A stretch of DNA of 64,000 bases from Thermoplasmata archaeon (GTDB lineage Archaea; Thermoplasmatota; Thermoplasmata; RBG-16-68-12; JAJISG01). Shown here piece after piece: positions 4,988 to 12,817 of the stretch (position 1 is its first letter; every line of letters begins with the position of its first letter). The position numbers and the translations under genes were made by a program. Location: contig JBHHZZ010000004.1 of assembly GCA_046758325.1 (NCBI GenBank), forward strand, positions 18,035 to 82,034, read 5' to 3'. The notes under the pieces were generated by a model. That model saw only the letters and a list, made by a program, of their open reading frames with translations, had not been told where the DNA came from and did not search any database.

Positions 4988-5455
4988 ATGGCCAACCTCT
5001 TGGCCCACAGCCTGTTCGCGCTTGCCCTCTATAGCTTTCTGTGGTCTATCTTCCTACATGAACCGCTGACGGAGTACGCCTTCCTCGCCGCCATTGTCGC
5101 GCTGATGCCGGATATCGACGCCGGTGCCGGCGGAGAGAGATCACCCCTGTGTCATTCCCTCGGATATGCGGTCCTATGGAGCCTCCTGGCCCTCTGCGGC
5201 CTGGGCCTGGCCTCGTCCCTGCGTCTTATGCCCCTCGGCATCCTTCTTCCCATGGAACTTGCCGTAGTGATGGGGTTGGGTTCCCACCTTCTGCTCGACG
5301 CCCTCGTTGATCCTGGGGTGCTAACTCTTCCGAAAGGAGGAGGCGAGTGGGGGAGGTTCCCCCGGCTCTTCGGGGTCCGCGTAGCCTCTCGGCTCAACCT
5401 ACTCGTCTCCCTGGGGTCAACAGCAGCCCTCCTAACCCTTCTGGCCCTCTACTGA
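4988..5455 (+). CDS. Membrane metal-dependent hydrolase (YdjM-like)
   Basis: H near N-terminus, PDID, HSL, SHLLLD motifs among TM helices. Confidence 0.75.
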   Translation: MANLLAHSLFALALYSFLWSIFLHEPLTEYAFLAAIVALMPDIDAGAGGERSPLCHSLGYAVLWSLLALCGLGLASSLRLMPLGILLPMELAVVMGLGSHLLLDALVDPGVLTLPKGGGEWGRFPRLFGVRVASRLNLLVSLGSTAALLTLLALY

Positions 5456-5961
5456 TCAGAGATCGCCCTCACGCGTGCGACGCCGTCGATCTCCTCGATG
5501 AAGTCTGCCACGGGGGGAGGCACAAGCTCCTTCCAGTTACCGCCTTCAAGTATCCTCCTCCTGATCTCGGTCCCAGAGAACGTGCCCCTATCGAGGAGGG
5601 GCTTTTCCAGGACCGTGATGCCCGCCTCCTGGAAGAGCTGGCGCGTCAGCGGGTCGTGGGAGAACACCGCTTCGAAGGGAGGGACTAACGAGAGGACGTG
5701 ACTCACCCATTGGGAGTGGGCGCCCACATCCGGAATGGGTACGATGCGGCACCCCTCCAGACCCTCATCCTCCAGGGTTCTCTGGATCATCTCGTAACGT
5801 TCCGCCGAGGTAAAGGGGTTTTGAAGAGTGTGGGAAAACTGGCTGGAGCCAATGCCCAAAAAGACCTCACCGAAGTCCTCAAGGATTTGTCTCAGCATGT
5901 ACAGGTGTCCACGATGAAAGGGCTGAAAACGGCCAATGAAGAGTGCCCTGGTACCCGTCAA
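5449..5961 (-). CDS. nadM: Nicotinamide-nucleotide adenylyltransferase
   Basis: GRFQPFHRGH, GIGSSQ.SHT..NPFT..ER, SGTEIR; TTG start 4 nt after GGTGA. Confidence 0.95.
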   Translation of the reverse strand: MTGTRALFIGRFQPFHRGHLYMLRQILEDFGEVFLGIGSSQFSHTLQNPFTSAERYEMIQRTLEDEGLEGCRIVPIPDVGAHSQWVSHVLSLVPPFEAVFSHDPLTRQLFQEAGITVLEKPLLDRGTFSGTEIRRRILEGGNWKELVPPPVADFIEEIDGVARVRAISDQ

Positions 5962-6447: not shown

Positions 6448-8424
6448 CTAATGAGGAACGGCCCTATCCCGAGTCACCACGGGCTTGGCCCTGGGAGATA
6501 CCATGTGTGTGAGCTTGCTGATCAGGTTGCTCTTCTTCGGCCCGACCAGGGCGTGATCGAGTACCTCCTTCAGGGTTTCCCCAGGCACGATCTCTATCTT
6601 CCCCACGTACTTGCTCTCGATGAGGACATCGTTCATGTTAGACTTGGGAATGATGACCTTCTTGAAGCCCATTTCCGCCGCGGCCTCCACCTTGGCAGTG
6701 ATGCCTCCCACCGGAAGTACCTGTCCCCTGATGCTGAGGGACCCCGTCATGGCGACGGTCTGGTCCACCTCTACCTCCTCGAGGGCGGAGATGACGGCGG
6801 TGGCCACGGATATGGAAGCACTATCCCCTTCAACCCCCTCATGGGTCCCGACAAACTGCACGTGAATGTCGTAGTTGCTTACGTCCTCGCCAGTGTACTT
6901 CTTGATGAGGGCGGATACGTTCTGCACGGCCTCCTTGGCTATGTCGCCCAGGCGGCCAGTGGCGATGATCTTTCCATCATTCCTGCTCTGGGCAGGGGTC
7001 ACCTCAGCCACGATGGGCAGCACGATGCCGGAGAACTCTGACATGCTGGGATCGGCGTTCAGGACGGCGAGGCCATTGACGATGCCCACCTGGGCTCCCT
7101 CGGTGACGAAGGTCTTGTAGTCCCGCCTGCGCTCGATGAACCTGTCCGCCACCTGTTGCTCCAGACTCCTCGCCATCTTCTTGGCCACCAAGACATGTTC
7201 ACCGACGGTGTAGGCCGCTCCCCGCTCCCGCGCTATGTCCCCAGCCACCCGGATCAGTCCACCCAGCTCCCGGATGCGGAGGGTGAGCTGACCTCTCCGA
7301 CCAGCCCTCCTCTGGGCCTCCCGAATGATCTCCAGGACGCCGCTCTTGTCGAAGTGGGGTATCTTCCCATCCTTGGCGACCTCCTGGGCAACGACTCTGA
7401 CAAGCTTCTCCCGGTTCTCCAAGGTGTCCGGCATGGAACTCTTTACGTACACCTCGTAGCCGTAGCCCCTGATTCTGGATCGCAGGGCGGGGTGCATGCC
7501 TGACAGTGCGTCCAGGTTTCCCGCTGCCACCAGGATGAAGTCACAGGGAACTGGCTCGGTCCTGACCATGGCCCCCGCGCTCCTCTCGCTCTGCCCCACG
7601 ATACTGAACTTCTTCTCCTGCAGGGCGGTGAGCAGGGCCTGCTGGCTCTCCAGCCGGAGGACGTTGATCTCGTCGATAAAGAGGATCCCCTTGTGGGCCT
7701 TGTGGATGGCTCCCGACTCGACCCTCTCGTGGGCAGGCGTCTCCAGGCCACCAGACTGGAAGGGATCATGCCTCACATCCCCTAGGAGGGCCCCGGCGTG
7801 AGATCCTGTGGCGTCCATGAAGGGAGGCATGTCGTCGGGGTCATGGCCTACGAGCAGCTTGGGTACAATGAGCATATCCTGCCTGTTGCCTGCGTACCTG
7901 GTGGCCATGAAGATGATGGCCGCCACGAGGATTCCAAAGAGAAGGACCATGGGCTGAGGCGGCTGGGAGAGGAATGCCAACAGGGCGGACATGAGGATGA
8001 TGACGACGATGATGGTGGTCATCATGGAGGCCCGCTGCTCCTTTCTCCTCATGGCCTCCGCTTTGTGGGCTTGGACTATCTCCTTCCCCTTGCCAGCGGG
8101 AACCACCCTTATCTTTGGCTCGTTGGTGTCCTCCGGGTTGTGGTATACGATGATGTCCTGAAGCTCCTCCCTGGGCAGAAGCTCCGCCATCGCCTGGGCC
8201 AGCATCGACTTGCCCGTTCCCGGGTCTCCTAATAGCATGACGTGCCGCTTCTGCTCTGCCGCCTTCTTGGCGACCTCAACTGCCTCTTCCTGCCCTATGA
8301 CTTGGTCGACCAGCCGTTCGGGGATTCTGATGTCGGCTGTCGTCTCGAAGGTCTGGGTCTTGATCCAATCCTGGAGAGGAGGGAGGGGCGATTCAGTAGT
8401 TGCCTGAGAATCACTTTCGGTCAT
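6448..8424 (-). CDS. lonB: Archaeal membrane ATP-dependent protease LonB
   Basis: GDPGTGKS Walker A, two TM insert, FIDEI Walker B, EGDSAS catalytic Ser, PVGGITAK catalytic Lys. Confidence 0.97.
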
Positions 8425-8681
8425 CTCTCGTCATCCTCTGATATAACCAGTGAGAAATAGGGCCTCCGTCTTATTAAAGTTATTCTCCCAGAATCGCTGC
8501 AGGTACCAAGTCCACTTGAGTACCTCTTCTGGGCCCCCGTCGCGCTGCTGAACAGTAGCCTGGTCAAGGTGTAAGGAGGACTGCGCTTAGACTCCCGGTC
8601 ACATGTCAGGAGACTATGCCACTGCCTCGACTTCCGTGCATGAAGGAGTGCGGAACAGGCCTTCCATAGCCGACCCAAAGG

Positions 8682-9227
8682 CTAAGGGGTCACCATCCTC
8701 TTGGCGATCATCTCCGCCAGCGTCTGAAAGGCATCCTGCACGTTCTCCCCGGTCTTGGCGCTGGTGTAGATATGGGGGGCTGCGTACTTCTTAGCGGTCT
8801 CTTTCAGTTGCTCCTCATCGAAGCTGATCTGGTCCTTGAGGTCTACCTTGTTAGCCAGAAAGTGGATGGGTATGTCTCCTGTCACCTTGTGGACCGCTTC
8901 CACCCAGTCATGCAGGTCATAGAGGGTGTCCTTCCTCGTGACATCGCAGACGGCGAGGACGCCCTGGGCACCGTGGAAGTAGGCCTCCTTCAGTAGCTCG
9001 CGGAAGCCCTTCTCCCCCATGATGTCCCAGACCGTCATGTCTACCTCCACTTGGCTGCCGTCCTCGGCTTCTACGAGGATCTCTTTCTTGGAAACCTTGG
9101 CTCCCAAAGTGGAGATGTAGCGGTCATCGAATTCGTCATGGATGAATCGCCTAATCAGGCAGGTTTTGCCAACGGCCCCCTCTCCGACGAGGCAGATCTT
9201 GACCTTCATCTTCTCCGTCTCTGGCAT
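8682..9227 (-). CDS. Rab/Ras-like small GTPase (paralog 3)
   Basis: GEGAVGKT, YISTLG, WDIMGE, NKVD, TSAKTG; AT-rich TATA-like box at ~9268-9277. Confidence 0.92.
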   Translation of the reverse strand: MPETEKMKVKICLVGEGAVGKTCLIRRFIHDEFDDRYISTLGAKVSKKEILVEAEDGSQVEVDMTVWDIMGEKGFRELLKEAYFHGAQGVLAVCDVTRKDTLYDLHDWVEAVHKVTGDIPIHFLANKVDLKDQISFDEEQLKETAKKYAAPHIYTSAKTGENVQDAFQTLAEMIAKRMVTP

Positions 9228-9375
9228 CTGGACACTCCCTAGAAGCAATCTGCTTACTCCGCCTCGATTATAAAATGCTATAGATGTCGTTATCACCGTC
9301 GATATCTGACGCGGGAGGGTCCTCGGAAAGGCGCATGCCGGTGATGGCGTAATACGGCCTTCCAAGACAGGGTGT

Positions 9376-9918
9376 TCAACGCCTTACGAACTGCTTGGCG
9401 ATATTCCTGAATGCCTGTCGCACGTTCTCACCAGTTTTCGCACTCGTGATCTTGTAGGGACAGGAATGGGTCTTGGCAAAGGCAGCCACATCCTGCTCTC
9501 GAACCTGCATTTGGTCCTGCAGATCGACCTTGTTTCCCACGATGACTACGGGAATTCGCCCCGTGATTCTGAGGACGGTGGAGAGCGAGGTGTGTAGGTC
9601 GTCAAGGGTGTCGGGCCGCGTCAGATCGCACACCGCCAGGACCCCCTGCGCCCCCTCGAAATAGGCCTCCTTCAGGAGCTCGCGGAAGCCCTTCTCCCCC
9701 ATGATGTCCCATATCGTCATGTCTAGCCGGGCCGGCTTCTTACCCTTAATCTCGACCTCCGTCTTGGTTATCTTCGCGCCTATGGTTGCGAAGTATCGGT
9801 CCTCGAAGGTGTTGTGGACGTAACGGTTGACCAGACTGGTCTTCCCCACCGCGGACTCCCCCACGAGGCAGACCTTCATTTTCAAAACCTTCGTTTGTGG
9901 AGGGCTGAGAACGGCCAT
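9376..9918 (-). CDS. Rab/Ras-like small GTPase (paralog 2)
   Basis: GESAVGKT, YFATIG, WDIMGE, NKVD, TSAKTG; ATG 9918. Confidence 0.92.
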   Translation of the reverse strand: MAVLSPPQTKVLKMKVCLVGESAVGKTSLVNRYVHNTFEDRYFATIGAKITKTEVEIKGKKPARLDMTIWDIMGEKGFRELLKEAYFEGAQGVLAVCDLTRPDTLDDLHTSLSTVLRITGRIPVVIVGNKVDLQDQMQVREQDVAAFAKTHSCPYKITSAKTGENVRQAFRNIAKQFVRR

Positions 9919-9985
9919 CGGACTCCACTTGAGGACTCTGGGAAATAACTCTTCCCACGACCGTATCACTAATGATTCTCTAGTT

Positions 9986-10549
9986 TTAGTCCTCCTCTGA
10001 AGTGACCTGGGTGAGCCGTTCGGCGACGATACGCCTGGCAAGGCTCGTGAAGGCGTCCTCCACGTTCTCCCCCGTCTTGGCGCTGGTAAAGTGCCAAGGC
10101 GAGTCGTAGGCTTTGGAGAACTGCTCCACCTCTCCTTCCCCAATATCCATCTTGTCCTTGAGGTCAACCTTGTTGGCAAAAATCTCTATGGGGATTCGAC
10201 CGGTGACGCTGTAGACGCCCTCGATCCAATCGTCTAGGTCGTCCAAGGTGTTCCTCCTGGTGACGTCGCACACTGCGATGATGCCCTTGGCACCGTAGAA
10301 GTAGGCCTCCTTCAGGAGCTCGCGAAAGCCCTTCTGACCCATGATGTCCCAGACGGTCATGTCGACCCTTATCCTCCCATCCTCAGGGGGCAAGTCGACG
10401 ACGGTCTCCTTCTTGGAGACCTTTGTCCCGAGGGTCTGAATGTACTTGTCATCGAAGTCGTCGTGGACAAACCGGCGGATGAGGCTCGTCTTTCCGACGG
10501 CCGCCTCCCCTACGAGGCACACCTTCATCTTCATTCTCTTGGCTTCCAT
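9986..10549 (-). CDS. Rab/Ras-like small GTPase (paralog 1)
   Basis: GEAAVGKT, YIQTLG, WDIMGQ, NKVD, TSAKTG; alternative start 10558. Confidence 0.92.
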   Translation of the reverse strand: MEAKRMKMKVCLVGEAAVGKTSLIRRFVHDDFDDKYIQTLGTKVSKKETVVDLPPEDGRIRVDMTVWDIMGQKGFRELLKEAYFYGAKGIIAVCDVTRRNTLDDLDDWIEGVYSVTGRIPIEIFANKVDLKDKMDIGEGEVEQFSKAYDSPWHFTSAKTGENVEDAFTSLARRIVAERLTQVTSEED

Positions 10550-10578
10550 GAGCCTCATTTTCCAACGTCGTCGAACCG

Positions 10579-10687
10579 CATATAAACGTTGGGCTTGTGT
10601 TATCAGAGGCGATAGCTGGGTTCCCTTTCAGGGGGAGGCAGGCCACCAAGTTATCCTGACGATTACTGAAAAGACAATGGTTATATA
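10579..10687. promoter_or_regulatory. Divergent archaeal promoters for the GTPase cluster (-) and r-protein operon (+)
   Basis: TTTATATG on - strand at 10579-10586; TTATATA on + strand at 10681-10687 with purine-rich BRE-like sequence upstream. Confidence 0.65.
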
Positions 10688-10830: not shown

Positions 10831-11832
10831 ATGCCTAAGACACGCAAGCCCAGACATGGCTCCATGGCTTACTCGCCCCGCAAGAGGGCCAGGAAAGAGG
10901 TCCCTCACTTCACCTCCTGGCCCGAGATTAGCGACGGCCCTAAGCTCCAATCCTTCGCTGGATACAAGGCCGGGATGACCCATGTCCTCATGACGGACTT
11001 CAACCCCAACACCACCACTGCAGGCCAGGAGATTCAGGTGCCCGTAACCGTCGTGGAGGTCCCTCCCATGCGAGGGGCGGCTGTTCGTCTCTATCGGGAG
11101 AGCCCCGAGGGCCTGAAGGCGTATGGGGAGGTATGGGAGGCGCGCCTGGACAGGGAGCTGGCGGCCAGGTTGCCTCTTCCCAAGGGATACGATCCGGAAA
11201 AGGTCTGGCGTCGGTTTGACGCTGAGAAGGTCGACGAGGTAAGGGTCCTCACATACACCCAGCCGAAACTGGTGAAGGGCATTCCCAAGAAGGTGCCAGA
11301 CCTGATGGAGACGAGAATCGGTGGAGGGACCATCGAGGACAGGATCGAGTACGCCAAGGGTATCCTGGGTAAGGAGGTCACCGTGCGGAACTTTGCAGGG
11401 GAGGGTCAGCTGGTGGATGTGGCAGCCGTCACGAAGGGGAAGGGCTTTCAGGGCGCCGTCAAGCGGTGGGGCATAAAGATCCTGAGCCACAAGGACAGCA
11501 AGATCAGGCGCAGGGTCGGGACTCTAGGTACCTTCAAGCCCGGATACACGCGGCCCACCGTACCCCAGGCAGGTCAGATGGGGTACCACCAGAGGACGGA
11601 GTTCAACAAGCTCATCTTGAGGATAGGGGATGATGGGTCAGAGATAACGCCCCAGGGAGGTTTCCTGAGGTACGGGGAGGTGAGGAACACCTATCTCCTA
11701 ATCAAGGGCTCCATACCGGGGCCGTGCAAGCGGCTCGTGAGGTTCCGTGATCCCATGAGGGCGGATAGGGCGAAGATGGTAGAACAGCCAGATCTTACCT
11801 ACGTCTCCCTCACGTCGAGGCAAGGTGCGTAA
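10831..11832 (+). CDS. rpl3: 50S ribosomal protein uL3
   Basis: PRHGSMAYSPRKRA, GYKAGMTH, TKGKGFQGAVKRWG, GQMGYHQRTE. Confidence 0.98.
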   Translation: MPKTRKPRHGSMAYSPRKRARKEVPHFTSWPEISDGPKLQSFAGYKAGMTHVLMTDFNPNTTTAGQEIQVPVTVVEVPPMRGAAVRLYRESPEGLKAYGEVWEARLDRELAARLPLPKGYDPEKVWRRFDAEKVDEVRVLTYTQPKLVKGIPKKVPDLMETRIGGGTIEDRIEYAKGILGKEVTVRNFAGEGQLVDVAAVTKGKGFQGAVKRWGIKILSHKDSKIRRRVGTLGTFKPGYTRPTVPQAGQMGYHQRTEFNKLILRIGDDGSEITPQGGFLRYGEVRNTYLLIKGSIPGPCKRLVRFRDPMRADRAKMVEQPDLTYVSLTSRQGA

Positions 11833-11833
11833 C

Positions 11834-12817
11834 GTGGTAGAAAAGCCCGAGGACAAGGAGGAGATGCCTCAGATCAAGCCGAAGGACGTAAGGAGGGCTA
11901 GGAAAGCCCAGCTACAGGAGTGGTGCGAGGCCTTCGGCCTGGACTCCTCGGGCAAAGTGGATGACCTCAGGAAGCGGCTCATAGCCTTCCTGGAGTCGGA
12001 GGAGTACCTGCTCCTGGAAGAGGAGGAGGCCCCCGAGCTGCCAGAGCGGGAAGAGGGCCAGGCATACCTCTACTCCATGGAGGGCAAGATCCTCCACGTT
12101 CTCGACCTTCCTCGGGTCTTCAGGTCAGATGTGCGGACTGACCTCATCAAGCGAGCCGTGGATGCCTTTCGCGCCAACAGGAGGCAGCCCTATGGCCCCG
12201 GCCCCGCCGCGGGGTTGAGGCACTCGGTCTCCTGGTGGGGGAAGGGCCGGGGCGTCTCGAGGGTTCCGAGGCTCAAGGACAGCCGCCGGGCCGCCCAGGC
12301 TCCCGGGACTGTTGGCGGCAGGAGGGCCCATCCCCCCCGTCCGGAGCGTGACTGGAGCAAGAAGCTGAACAGGAAGGAGAGGAGGCTAGCTCGAGCCGCC
12401 GCCCTGGCGGCCACAGCGGATACCACTCTCGTCACGCAACGGGGTCACCGATTCCGGGGAGACCTCTCCCTCCCGGTGGTTCTGGAGGCCAAGGTGGAGG
12501 GGCTGGAGAGCACAAAGGAGGCGGTGGACGTATTGCAGAGGCTCGGCCTCAGCGAGGATGTGGAGAGGTCCGCCAGAAAGAAGGTCAGGGCCGGCAGGGG
12601 GAAGATGAGGGGTCGTCGGTATCGCAGGAAGAAGGGCCCTCTGGTGGTCCTCTCCAACGGCTGCCCAGGGGGCAGGGCCTTCGGGAACCTCCCAGGGGTG
12701 GATGTGGTGGACCCCTCGGGCCTCAATGCTGAGGTCCTCGCCCCCGGCGGAGTCCCTGGGAGGCTTACTATCATTAGCGAGAAGGCCCTTGAGGAGCTTA
12801 GGAGTTGGTCGTCATGA
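11834..12817 (+). CDS. rpl4: 50S ribosomal protein uL4 with N-terminal SAP-like extension
   Basis: WGKGRGVSRVPR, PGTVGGRRAHPP, LAPGGVPGRL; start GTG 11834 or ATG 11864. Confidence 0.96.
   Translation: MVEKPEDKEEMPQIKPKDVRRARKAQLQEWCEAFGLDSSGKVDDLRKRLIAFLESEEYLLLEEEEAPELPEREEGQAYLYSMEGKILHVLDLPRVFRSDVRTDLIKRAVDAFRANRRQPYGPGPAAGLRHSVSWWGKGRGVSRVPRLKDSRRAAQAPGTVGGRRAHPPRPERDWSKKLNRKERRLARAAALAATADTTLVTQRGHRFRGDLSLPVVLEAKVEGLESTKEAVDVLQRLGLSEDVERSARKKVRAGRGKMRGRRYRRKKGPLVVLSNGCPGGRAFGNLPGVDVVDPSGLNAEVLAPGGVPGRLTIISEKALEELRSWSS

Follow-up and report, generated by a model that had tools for sequence, protein, structure and literature searches.

What do three Rab-like small GTPase genes do side by side, between the gene for a LonB membrane protease and a divergent ribosomal protein operon, in an archaeon of the class Thermoplasmata? 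The question is raised by a stretch of 64,000 nucleotides (the window; C4:18035-82034 of a 1.84 Mb genome in 115 contigs, completeness 96%), and the three genes encode proteins here named RabL-A, RabL-B and RabL-C. We consider the chances about even that the trio are nucleotide-dependent switches from a Ras-superfamily branch (RabL) that is Thermoplasmata-wide and lineage-expanded, and that they act within a signalling network of GTPases, longin-fold and KaiC-type proteins, in which a longin-fold domain designated RLD is the candidate partner. Gene calls were filtered by GC content at third codon positions (GC3); plain calling of the longest open reading frame (ORF) favours antisense frames in this GC-rich genome.

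All three proteins are standalone paralogs containing, within one G domain of ~170 aa, the complete set of Ras-superfamily motifs (G1 GxxxxGK[ST], G2 Thr, G3 DxxG, G4 NKxD and G5 SAK), as a first-pass annotation of this DNA had read from the ORFs and their translations. They match the Pfam Ras family (PF00071) with E-values of 5.1e-35, 5.2e-39 and 4e-37 for A, B and C, at 121–134 bits against a cut-off of 21.6, compared to 47–57 bits for the Arf family. In NCBIfam only the generic small_GTP domain is matched, and orthologs bear the NCBI name 'Rab family GTPase'. The switch I strings YIQTLG, YFATIG and YISTLG, and the shared switch II WDIMGQ/E KGFRELLKEAYF, quoted in the same annotation, agree exactly with the translations. 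RabL-A has candidate ATG starts at 10558, 10549 and 10534; from 10549 the product is 187 residues long and identical (100%) to the NCBI record. The proteins end in SEED (A), FVRR (B) and MVTP (C), none with a long N-terminal extension. The C-terminal Cys prenylation motif, already reported as missing, is absent from all three, and no Cys was found in the final six residues of any of 135 trio orthologs.

A sequence search of the PDB placed RabL-A closest to 7ezb, a Rab of Thorarchaeota (E = 1.6e-29), with Rab8A, Rab6, Ypt1, Rab18 and Rab21 next. The 60 matches listed are all of Rab type (Rab/Ypt/Sec4) except for one Ran (GSP1, E = 1.3e-21). The AlphaFold2 (AF2) model of RabL-A (pLDDT 89.7, pTM 0.87) has a small-GTPase fold, and its Foldseek matches, in a list that runs to rank 50, are without exception Rabs (TM 0.73–0.85, 27–35% identity), with E-values down to 1.1e-18 against Rab8a, Rab1b and Rab27. 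Among the matches listed in both searches, Rabs thus come nearer to RabL-A than the Ras, Rho, Ran and Arf families do. For the Rab-defining motifs RabF1–RabF5, reportedly defined by Pereira-Leal and Seabra in 2000, we assumed the sequences IGVDF, KLQIW, RFRSIT, YYRGA and LVYDIT. Alignment with Rab8A on these assumed motifs pairs IGIDF with LGTKV, KLQIW with DMTVW, RFRTIT with GFRELL, YYRGA with YFYGA, and LVYDIT with AVCDVT: RabF3–RabF5 are kept in part only, and RabF1 and RabF2 are not conserved. A Rab hypervariable tail with a prenylatable Cys is likewise absent from the trio. The trio are Rab-like in fold and nucleotide switch, yet they lack two defining Rab features.

Two other identities were considered and rejected. 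The trio are not of MglA type, because the G3 motif is canonical DxxG and contig C4 carries no Roadblock gene. An ArvA-type identity is excluded by the higher Ras than Arf scores and by the neighbours, which are LonB and uL3 rather than DUF2073 and DUF2072; ArvA itself is Arf-like and encoded in an operon with ArvB (DUF2073) and ArvC (DUF2072), according to the available part of the source (PMC10927574). The proteins fit two loosely drawn classes as these appear in excerpts of the defining papers, the 'archaeal Rab-like' GTPases (PMC4915359) and 'Rup' (PMC4316618). Judged by the description of Rup, they are prokaryotic, lie outside the MglA clade, keep the G3 Asp and are uncoupled from MglB.

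The locus was surveyed in related genomes, one per species, which are metagenome-assembled genomes labelled Thermoplasmata, Methanomassiliicoccales or 'Euryarchaeota RBG'. Of 78 loci, 63 start with a RabL-A ortholog; 49 of these hold three GTPase genes and six hold four. Since a full array therefore recurs in 55 of the 63 A-bearing loci of other species-level genomes, the tandem arrangement is not due to chance. The other eight have one or two GTPase genes, mostly through cuts at contig ends; one locus (L031) has only A and C, followed by LonB. LonB lies downstream in 52/63 loci and uL3 upstream in 48/63; the triad and its lonB–GTPases–rpl3 synteny are conserved. The catalytic residue of switch II is Gln in A, Glu in B and Glu in C (Q/E/E) in 45/45 three-gene arrays, and RabL-B orthologs are 51–69% identical.

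A quick maximum-likelihood tree of 67 rows, with SH-aLRT as its only support measure, was built with two MglA-like sequences and four eukaryotic Rab domains as outgroups and with no Asgard, Ras, Rho, Ran or Roc sequences. All 61 Thermoplasmata sequences stand apart from the Rab domains and the MglA-like outgroups (SH-aLRT 91), the MglA/Arf-like GTPases of contig C18 being a distant outgroup to RabL. The orthologs of A (85) and of C (94) each form a group, those of B form two subclades (99 each) whose union is unsupported (18), and the internal branching orders of A, B and C mirror one another. Because A and C are separate ortholog groups, the B subclades are supported and the branching orders are mirrored, A, B and C are, judging by the tree, old paralogs in fixed order that were duplicated before the order diversified. 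The four Rab domains were cut from two mis-merged gene models, P0125 and P0127 (from Solemya velum and Tulasnella), which string together three or four Rab domains; these are probably merged tandem Rab genes, and their summed scores inflate their rank.

The trio belong to a larger set. The genome holds nine RabL paralogs with 40–62% identity, among which G1 GxxxxGKT, G2 Thr, G3 DxxG, G4 NKxD and G5 SAK do not vary; the residues found at the catalytic position are Q, E, E, E, R, V, E, S and D. RabL is present in 79/79 genomes of the order, at 2–20 copies each; across the class, 131 of the 201 genomes sampled contain it, with few or none in each of three large families (0/23, 1/25 and 2/22 genomes). 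The idea of an independent expansion in Thermoplasmata is partly supported by the copy numbers and by the separate grouping in a tree without Asgard sequences. Expanded sets of Ras-superfamily proteins, like pairs of GTPases with longin proteins, commonly count as signatures of eukaryotes and Asgard archaea. The first-pass annotation had relied on this view of Ras-superfamily expansions; it fails here, where NCBI already labels the proteins as Rab family GTPases.

Around the six other paralogs the neighbouring genes are a mixture of transporters and enzymes with no common partner, and none lies beside a Lon gene; the exceptions to this mixture are a single Roadblock gene at a distance of 3.6 kb and a DUF835 protein of the membrane. 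On contig C2 one paralog is convergent with, and just after, atpD, and the same contig encodes an A-type ATPase catalytic subunit A of 1083 residues with a LAGLIDADG intein (L140:781-4032). Two distant Arf/MglA-like GTPases lie among Roadblock and KaiC genes on contig C18, in an operator-bearing operon (C18:15114-21638; L103) that is a second, separate small-GTPase system. The operon encodes a KaiC-like protein (239 aa), a fusion of KaiC to an Arf/MglA-like GTPase (398 aa), two Roadblock proteins, an MglA-like GTPase (188 aa), a KaiC (258 aa) and a TPR–KaiC protein (803 aa). Eleven Roadblock matches (about ten proteins) were found in the genome, all on contigs other than C4. The earlier remark that no roadblock or longin partner is nearby is hence correct within the window and misleading for the genome, which encodes about ten Roadblock proteins and four longin-fold RLDs.

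Phyletic pattern, gene order and one fusion link RLD, as a candidate partner, to the RabL family. In the same 201 genomes, 125 contain both, 6 contain RabL only (all with weak RabL scores), none contains RLD only and 70 contain neither. Within the order, RLD is found in 78/79 genomes with 0–17 matches each, and its copy number correlates with that of RabL (Spearman 0.57, n = 79). One RabL accompanies one RLD in 8/8 genomes of lineage f12 and in 4/4 of lineage f27. Gene order in f12 was examined in three genomes from two genera, with ORFs read in two of them. In these two, the sole RabL is of the Gln type and precedes the gene for the sole RLD protein by 18 or 75 nt; in the third, the match coordinates are consistent with the same order, and the flanking genes differ between the genera. 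The f12 RLD protein (1352–1358 aa) comprises an N-terminal signal or transmembrane segment, an NxS/T-rich ectodomain of ~1150 residues, one transmembrane helix and a cytoplasmic C-terminal RLD. A comparable arrangement is seen in lineage f5 of the window's order (two genomes, one genus), in which two successive RabL genes precede a single-pass surface protein of 1133–1159 aa with an RLD tail. Beside this f5 cluster lies a convergent gene for an archaeosortase/exosortase-like membrane protein (L212:5635-6504 and L213:5696-6565, both on the minus strand; PF09721, E = 2.6e-8, from the L212 scan only).

The fusion was found in a survey of the best 150 of 353 strong RabL representatives, which revealed RabL joined to DUF835 (P0131 and P0180), to TPR (P0132, P0207, P0224 and P0233) and to a coiled coil (P0204). 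P0131, a metagenomic protein of 698 aa, consists of DUF835, an RLD as the middle domain and an A-type RabL, so that RLD and RabL share one polypeptide; its GTPase domain groups with the A orthologs in the tree. The middle domain matches residues 1336-1445 (E = 3e-14) and 1850-1969 (E = 2e-7) of a 2311-residue scaffold protein encoded on contig C32 of the present genome. No Pfam family scores above threshold on the RLD of RLD-bearing proteins, and the P0131 middle domain has no Pfam match at E-values up to 5; a sub-threshold Robl_LC7 match (E = 0.097) was seen. Roadblock identity of this domain was not supported by hhalign, which returned a probability of 0.36% against nine Roadblock proteins of the genome.

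As neither Pfam nor hhalign gave a family, the middle domain of P0131 was placed by structure. An AF2 model of RLD from a 30-sequence alignment (pLDDT 84.8) has the longin topology beta-beta-alpha-beta-beta-beta-alpha(-alpha), with strands at 11-20, 25-30, 67-70, 73-79 and 83-91 and helices at 39-58 and 97-117. Its Foldseek matches (E = 6.9e-6 to 1e-3 overall) are led by the sigma-adaptins AP1/AP2 sigma, zeta-COP and Mon1-Ccz1 (E = 6.9e-6 to 4e-4), with Roadblock/MglB after the longin subunits. The genome has four RLDs, two in the C32 scaffold and two as the C-termini of polytopic membrane proteins (C6:29565-30698 and C3:6503-7729). In the scaffold, an N-terminal zinc ribbon is joined by ~1200 residues of repeated helical hairpins, two modules that combine CARDB-like and longin-fold domains, and DUF5915 at the C-terminus. 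Directly upstream of the membrane RLD gene on C6, an apparent tRNA gene was noticed by eye at C6:29365-29590.

The trio genes carry a further common feature in their upstream regions. Each has a TATA-like box 20–40 nt before its start, and ~13–15 nt upstream of the box lies a palindrome with the consensus GTTATC-N6-GATAAC; that of B lies 10 nt past the stop of A. Each gene has its own promoter-like TATA box and operator-like site, and appears to be transcribed separately. Across 45 loci, ATC-N6-GAT is found upstream of A in 28, of B in 42 and of C in 41, against a background of 0.06 per 172 nt, and most A loci without the full motif retain a GATAAC half-site. In the genome, the composite of ATC-N6-GATAA and a TATA-like box 8–18 nt downstream occurs nine times, compared to 0–2 times for 23 control palindromes of equal composition. 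A scan with a position weight matrix (PWM) returned 21 matches, and none with the genome read backwards; five relatives from four families gave 8, 5, 5, 7 and 11 matches, compared to 2, 0, 0, 0 and 0 for the reversed pattern.

Site-bearing genes of this genome encode, besides the RabL trio, KaiC-like ATPases (contigs C9, C13 and C18), a KaiC+TPR+zinc-ribbon protein (C12), the KaiC/Roadblock/MglA-like operon of C18, a DUF835 protein and a small HTH_20 protein (both C17), an operon in which a gene without assignment accompanies Roadblock and V4R genes (C48), a protease-less ATPase of LonB type (C93), a coiled-coil protein of 1492 aa (C11) and the C32 scaffold. RabL, KaiC-like ATPases, KaiC+TPR, the RLD scaffold, the 1492-aa coiled-coil protein, the protease-less ATPase (Lon2), DUF835 and winged helix-turn-helix (wHTH) proteins recur as site-linked genes across genomes. 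DUF835 has been classed as an inactivated KaiC (PMC5847659, Table 2). Lon2 is a LonB-like AAA+ ATPase without Lon_C (C93:90-1620 and, in a relative, G017:C17:5027-6680, L209:669-2180, 503 aa), and it carries the palindromic site in three genomes, the present one and two relatives.

We infer that the palindrome is the site of one transcription factor. Its position upstream of BRE (B recognition element) and TATA box suggests an activator, by analogy with TrmB-type regulators, which activate from sites so placed (PMC4158304). The symmetrised consensus TATCAC-N2-GTGATA has the half-sites of the Thermococcales glycolytic motif TATCAC-N5-GTGATA, its AC/GT positions being weak. Small wHTH (HTH_20/TrmB-like) genes carry the site in the present genome and in the relatives G059 and G078; in the present genome, one wHTH paralog has it with N7 spacing and another at an atypical position. 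These small proteins (in the present genome, the C17:18017 region, C6:21070 and C17:20476) are a lead, as candidate regulators. The trio operator is not found upstream of the single-copy RabL of f12, where a different palindrome lies, an inverted repeat TCAT(C/T)A, 9–10 nt, T(A/G)ATGA before a ATATATTTA box (L206:6626-6716 and L207:6799-6889), suggesting another operator in that lineage.

Taken together, these observations lead us to propose the following mechanism. One transcription factor would bind the predicted sites in the trio palindromes, probably activating, and would co-regulate the trio with the KaiC-like ATPases, the DUF835 protein, the MglA-like/Roadblock operon, Lon2 and the giant scaffold proteins. 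RLD would be the cognate platform, guanine nucleotide exchange factor (GEF) or GTPase-activating protein (GAP) of RabL, paralleling Rab–longin GEFs or MglA–MglB, and the Q/E/E trio would be three non-redundant switches differing in hydrolysis. The network may then relay envelope or surface signals to cytoplasmic ATPase hubs; such a relay seems the most likely role because RLD is found on cytoplasmic tails of surface proteins, on polytopic membrane proteins and on the 2311-aa scaffold.

Several observations weigh against this proposal. Since no RLD or Roadblock gene adjoins the trio, its partners are deduced from paralogs and from the shared operator, and the operator stands on only 1/4 of the RLD genes of the genome. 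Upstream of the six other RabL paralogs, only half-sites or palindromes with the wrong spacing were found. Part of the 'regulon' may be noise, since some operator matches precede unrelated genes, e.g. aIF-1A-like and LOG-like ones. Shared ancestry, genome size and completeness confound the co-occurrence and the copy-number correlation of RabL and RLD, and the one RabL gene of f27 is on another contig than its one RLD. The fold matches of RLD are modest (TM 0.47–0.63), and comparing profiles of P0131 and the genome's Roadblock proteins gave no significant match.

Another explanation, which we consider improbable, is that the trio regulates LonB or is regulated by it, through GTP-gated substrate delivery or control of membrane proteolysis. 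The downstream position of LonB in most loci, including 6/6 four-gene arrays, all of which lack uL3, speaks for such a tie, as does the same operator on Lon2. However, a LonB–GTPase operon is unlikely because the palindrome is found upstream of LonB in 0/45 loci. LonB starts 257 nt after C with its own TATA-like box TTTAATAA at 8471-8478, the C–LonB spacer ranges from ~130 to ~900 nt across loci, two three-gene loci lack LonB within 4.2 kb of downstream sequence, and neither the six other paralogs nor the single-copy lineages have RabL beside Lon genes. The adjacency to LonB is conserved, yet upstream sequences and spacers give no sign of co-transcription or shared control.

We hold it equally doubtful that RabL remodels membranes or forms vesicles as eukaryotic Rab/Arf proteins or haloarchaeal ArvA do. 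Among the matches listed, the closest solved structures are trafficking Rabs, RLD is most like the longin subunits of AP and COPI coats, and a small GTPase of Haloferax drives vesicle formation (PMC10927574, in the part available). However, no membrane anchor was found in the form of a C-terminal Cys or a long N-terminal extension, the family scores and neighbours of the trio differ from those of ArvA as described above, and the candidates for co-regulation are KaiC-type signalling ATPases rather than coat-like proteins.

Slightly less probable still is that inertia keeps together three tandem copies whose functions overlap, rather than a unit of members with distinct roles. The family duplicates readily, as its copy numbers and many tandem pairs elsewhere attest, and the four-gene variant of the array exists. 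Against inertia stand the fixed gene order with an invariant Q/E/E pattern, the old duplication indicated by the ortholog groups and their mirrored branching, and the operator-like site that every copy of the trio has retained.

A module tied to growth or translation and controlled jointly with the ribosomal operon, hinted at in the first-pass annotation, is very unlikely: uL3 is commonly divergent from A across a spacer of 272–296 nt (depending on the start chosen for A) with TATA-like boxes in both directions, but 6/6 four-gene arrays lack the upstream uL3 (five having 5.7–6 kb of upstream sequence), B and C possess promoters and operators of their own, uL3 has a TATA-like box separate from those of the trio (read from the sequence), the other operator targets are signalling ATPases and scaffolds rather than translation genes, and the trio match the ribosome-associated GTPase families in Pfam as weak, secondary hits. 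Judging by these gene orders, the array can do without the ribosomal operon as a neighbour. The coordinates of the trio and of the features discussed are collected in Table 1.

Table 1. Coordinates of the RabL trio, its operator-like sites and associated or neighbouring features (positions in the window unless a contig or locus is named)
Feature	Position	Strand	Description
RabL-A	9986..10558	-	ORF and translation; Rab-like small GTPase, switch II WDIMGQ, Gln at catalytic position
RabL-B	9376..9918	-	180 aa; Glu replaces catalytic Gln (WDIMGE); most divergent of the trio
RabL-C	8682..9227	-	181 aa; Glu replaces catalytic Gln (WDIMGE)
Operator-like site of A	10599..10616	-	GCTATCGCCTCTGATAAC; PWM 18.7; TATA TTTATAT at 10580-10586
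Operator-like site of B	9962..9979	-	AGAATCATTAGTGATACG; PWM 13.3; weak TATA-like TTATTT at 9943-9948
Operator-like site of C	9289..9306	-	GATATCGACGGTGATAAC; PWM 19.3; TATA box TTTTATAA at 9268-9275
C32 scaffold	C32:3247-10182 (L104:448-7383)		2311 aa; no transmembrane segments; operator upstream
LonB membrane protease	6448..8424	-	Pfam Lon_C and LonB_AAA-LID; downstream neighbour, probably outside the unit
Nicotinamide-nucleotide adenylyltransferase-like gene	5449-5961	-	beyond LonB on the trio strand
uL3	10831..11832	+	Pfam Ribosomal_L3, E = 2.6e-86; first gene of the divergent uL3–uL4 ribosomal protein operon; context

In the ribosomal protein operon, uL4 (11825-12817, plus strand) has an N-terminal extension of ~90 aa with a SAP domain (PF02037, residues 26-57; E = 2e-5, score 24.5 bits with the cut-off at 23.9). 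SAP is a DNA- or RNA-tethering motif and is unusual on a ribosomal protein.

Going beyond the preferred reading of the trio as RabL switches, we tentatively entertain a broader one, which we think rather less likely to be correct: that a non-Asgard archaeal class possesses its own eukaryote-style GTPase/longin system, in which longin tails of surface glycoproteins and membrane proteins would serve as GEF/GAP platforms, KaiC proteins as hubs, a single operator as the control element and the Q/E/E trio as the core. If so, a genome would contain 9–20 switches and 4–17 longin domains, and the trio would comprise one hydrolysis-competent and two hydrolysis-altered members. The pairing of Rab-like GTPases with longin domains would then be an older or convergent archaeal design, not an invention of the Asgard/eukaryote lineage.

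The clade concerned is common in soil, sediment and vents; in genomes of ~2 Mb it has as many as 20 Rab-like switches, alongside a matching set of longin-fold domains borne by receptor-like surface proteins. Were the pairing real, it would offer an independent and simpler system for the function and evolution of GTPase/longin modules, would counsel caution in using GTPase/longin proteins as markers of eukaryote ancestry, and would give a first way into the signal transduction of archaea that are uncultured. In its strict Gln/Glu/Glu pattern, the trio is in itself a natural experiment that varies the catalytic residue of a small GTPase.

Among known systems, the operator-linked set resembles the KaiC-hub proteins of archaea, in which KaiC-like and DUF835 proteins likewise occur with small GTPases, Roadblock, TPR and zinc-ribbon domains. 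Archaeal KaiC-like ATPases are said to have been described as signalling hubs by Makarova, Galperin and Koonin in 2017 (in mBio). In MglA–MglB (6h5b) and Mon1–Ccz1–Ypt7 (5ldd), a small GTPase is encoded with, or acts on, a Roadblock/longin regulator; RLD matches these folds, and the RabL-then-RLD gene order resembles mglA–mglB. However, RLD sits in giant surface, membrane or scaffold proteins and is not a small standalone dimer. RLD is a new sequence family relative to Pfam, and its pairing with RabL is predicted. The MglA-like GTPases of the genome that have Roadblock neighbours (C18) are a set distinct from RabL.

With eukaryotic Rabs (Rab8A, Rab1, Rab6, Rab27 and Ypt1), RabL shares the fold and the G1–G5 motifs, and the Gln of RabL-A aligns with that of Rab8A DTAGQ. 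Switch II reads WDIMG(Q/E)KGF in RabL and WDTAGQERF in eukaryotic Rabs. Unlike the latter, RabL lacks the hypervariable tail and the prenylation Cys, and two of the three trio members have Glu at the catalytic position.

The RabL family is already known, in that it is annotated and single members have been published (PMC4915359, as far as the available excerpt goes); full-text searches and the excerpts available, Makarova 2017 and supplements aside, did not show how large the expansion is, nor the Q/E/E trio, the operator-linked set or the pairing of RabL with longin receptors. The Thorarchaeota Rab (7ezb/7ezd/7eze) and the archaeal Rab-like GTPases in the accessible part of PMC4915359 are, like the trio, standalone proteins of ~180 aa with a short C-terminus and no prenylatable Cys, and the latter are likewise nearer to eukaryotic Rabs than to other families. 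The same part of that paper reports a single Rab-like gene each in a Thermoplasmatales archaeon and in Aciduliprofundum; by contrast, the present genome has nine copies (2–20 in the order), a Q/E/E tandem trio and a shared operator. Compared with the archaeal Rab-like GTPases described there, RabL retains just part of the RabF motifs, and longin-fold receptor tails and links to KaiC-type ATPases do not feature in the portion available.

The Rup family (Wuichet & Sogaard-Andersen 2015, PMC4316618, here as represented in its available sections) is similarly prokaryotic, has eukaryote-like G motifs, is not encoded beside MglB and is uncharacterised. Some archaeal members are highly duplicated like RabL, with up to six copies in Rup Group 2. 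Group 2, however, is described there as crenarchaeal only, and Group 1 as lacking the G3 Gln. In those sections the archaeal Rup group has no conserved neighbours, whereas RabL has a recurrent longin-fold candidate partner, fusions to DUF835 and TPR, and an operator.

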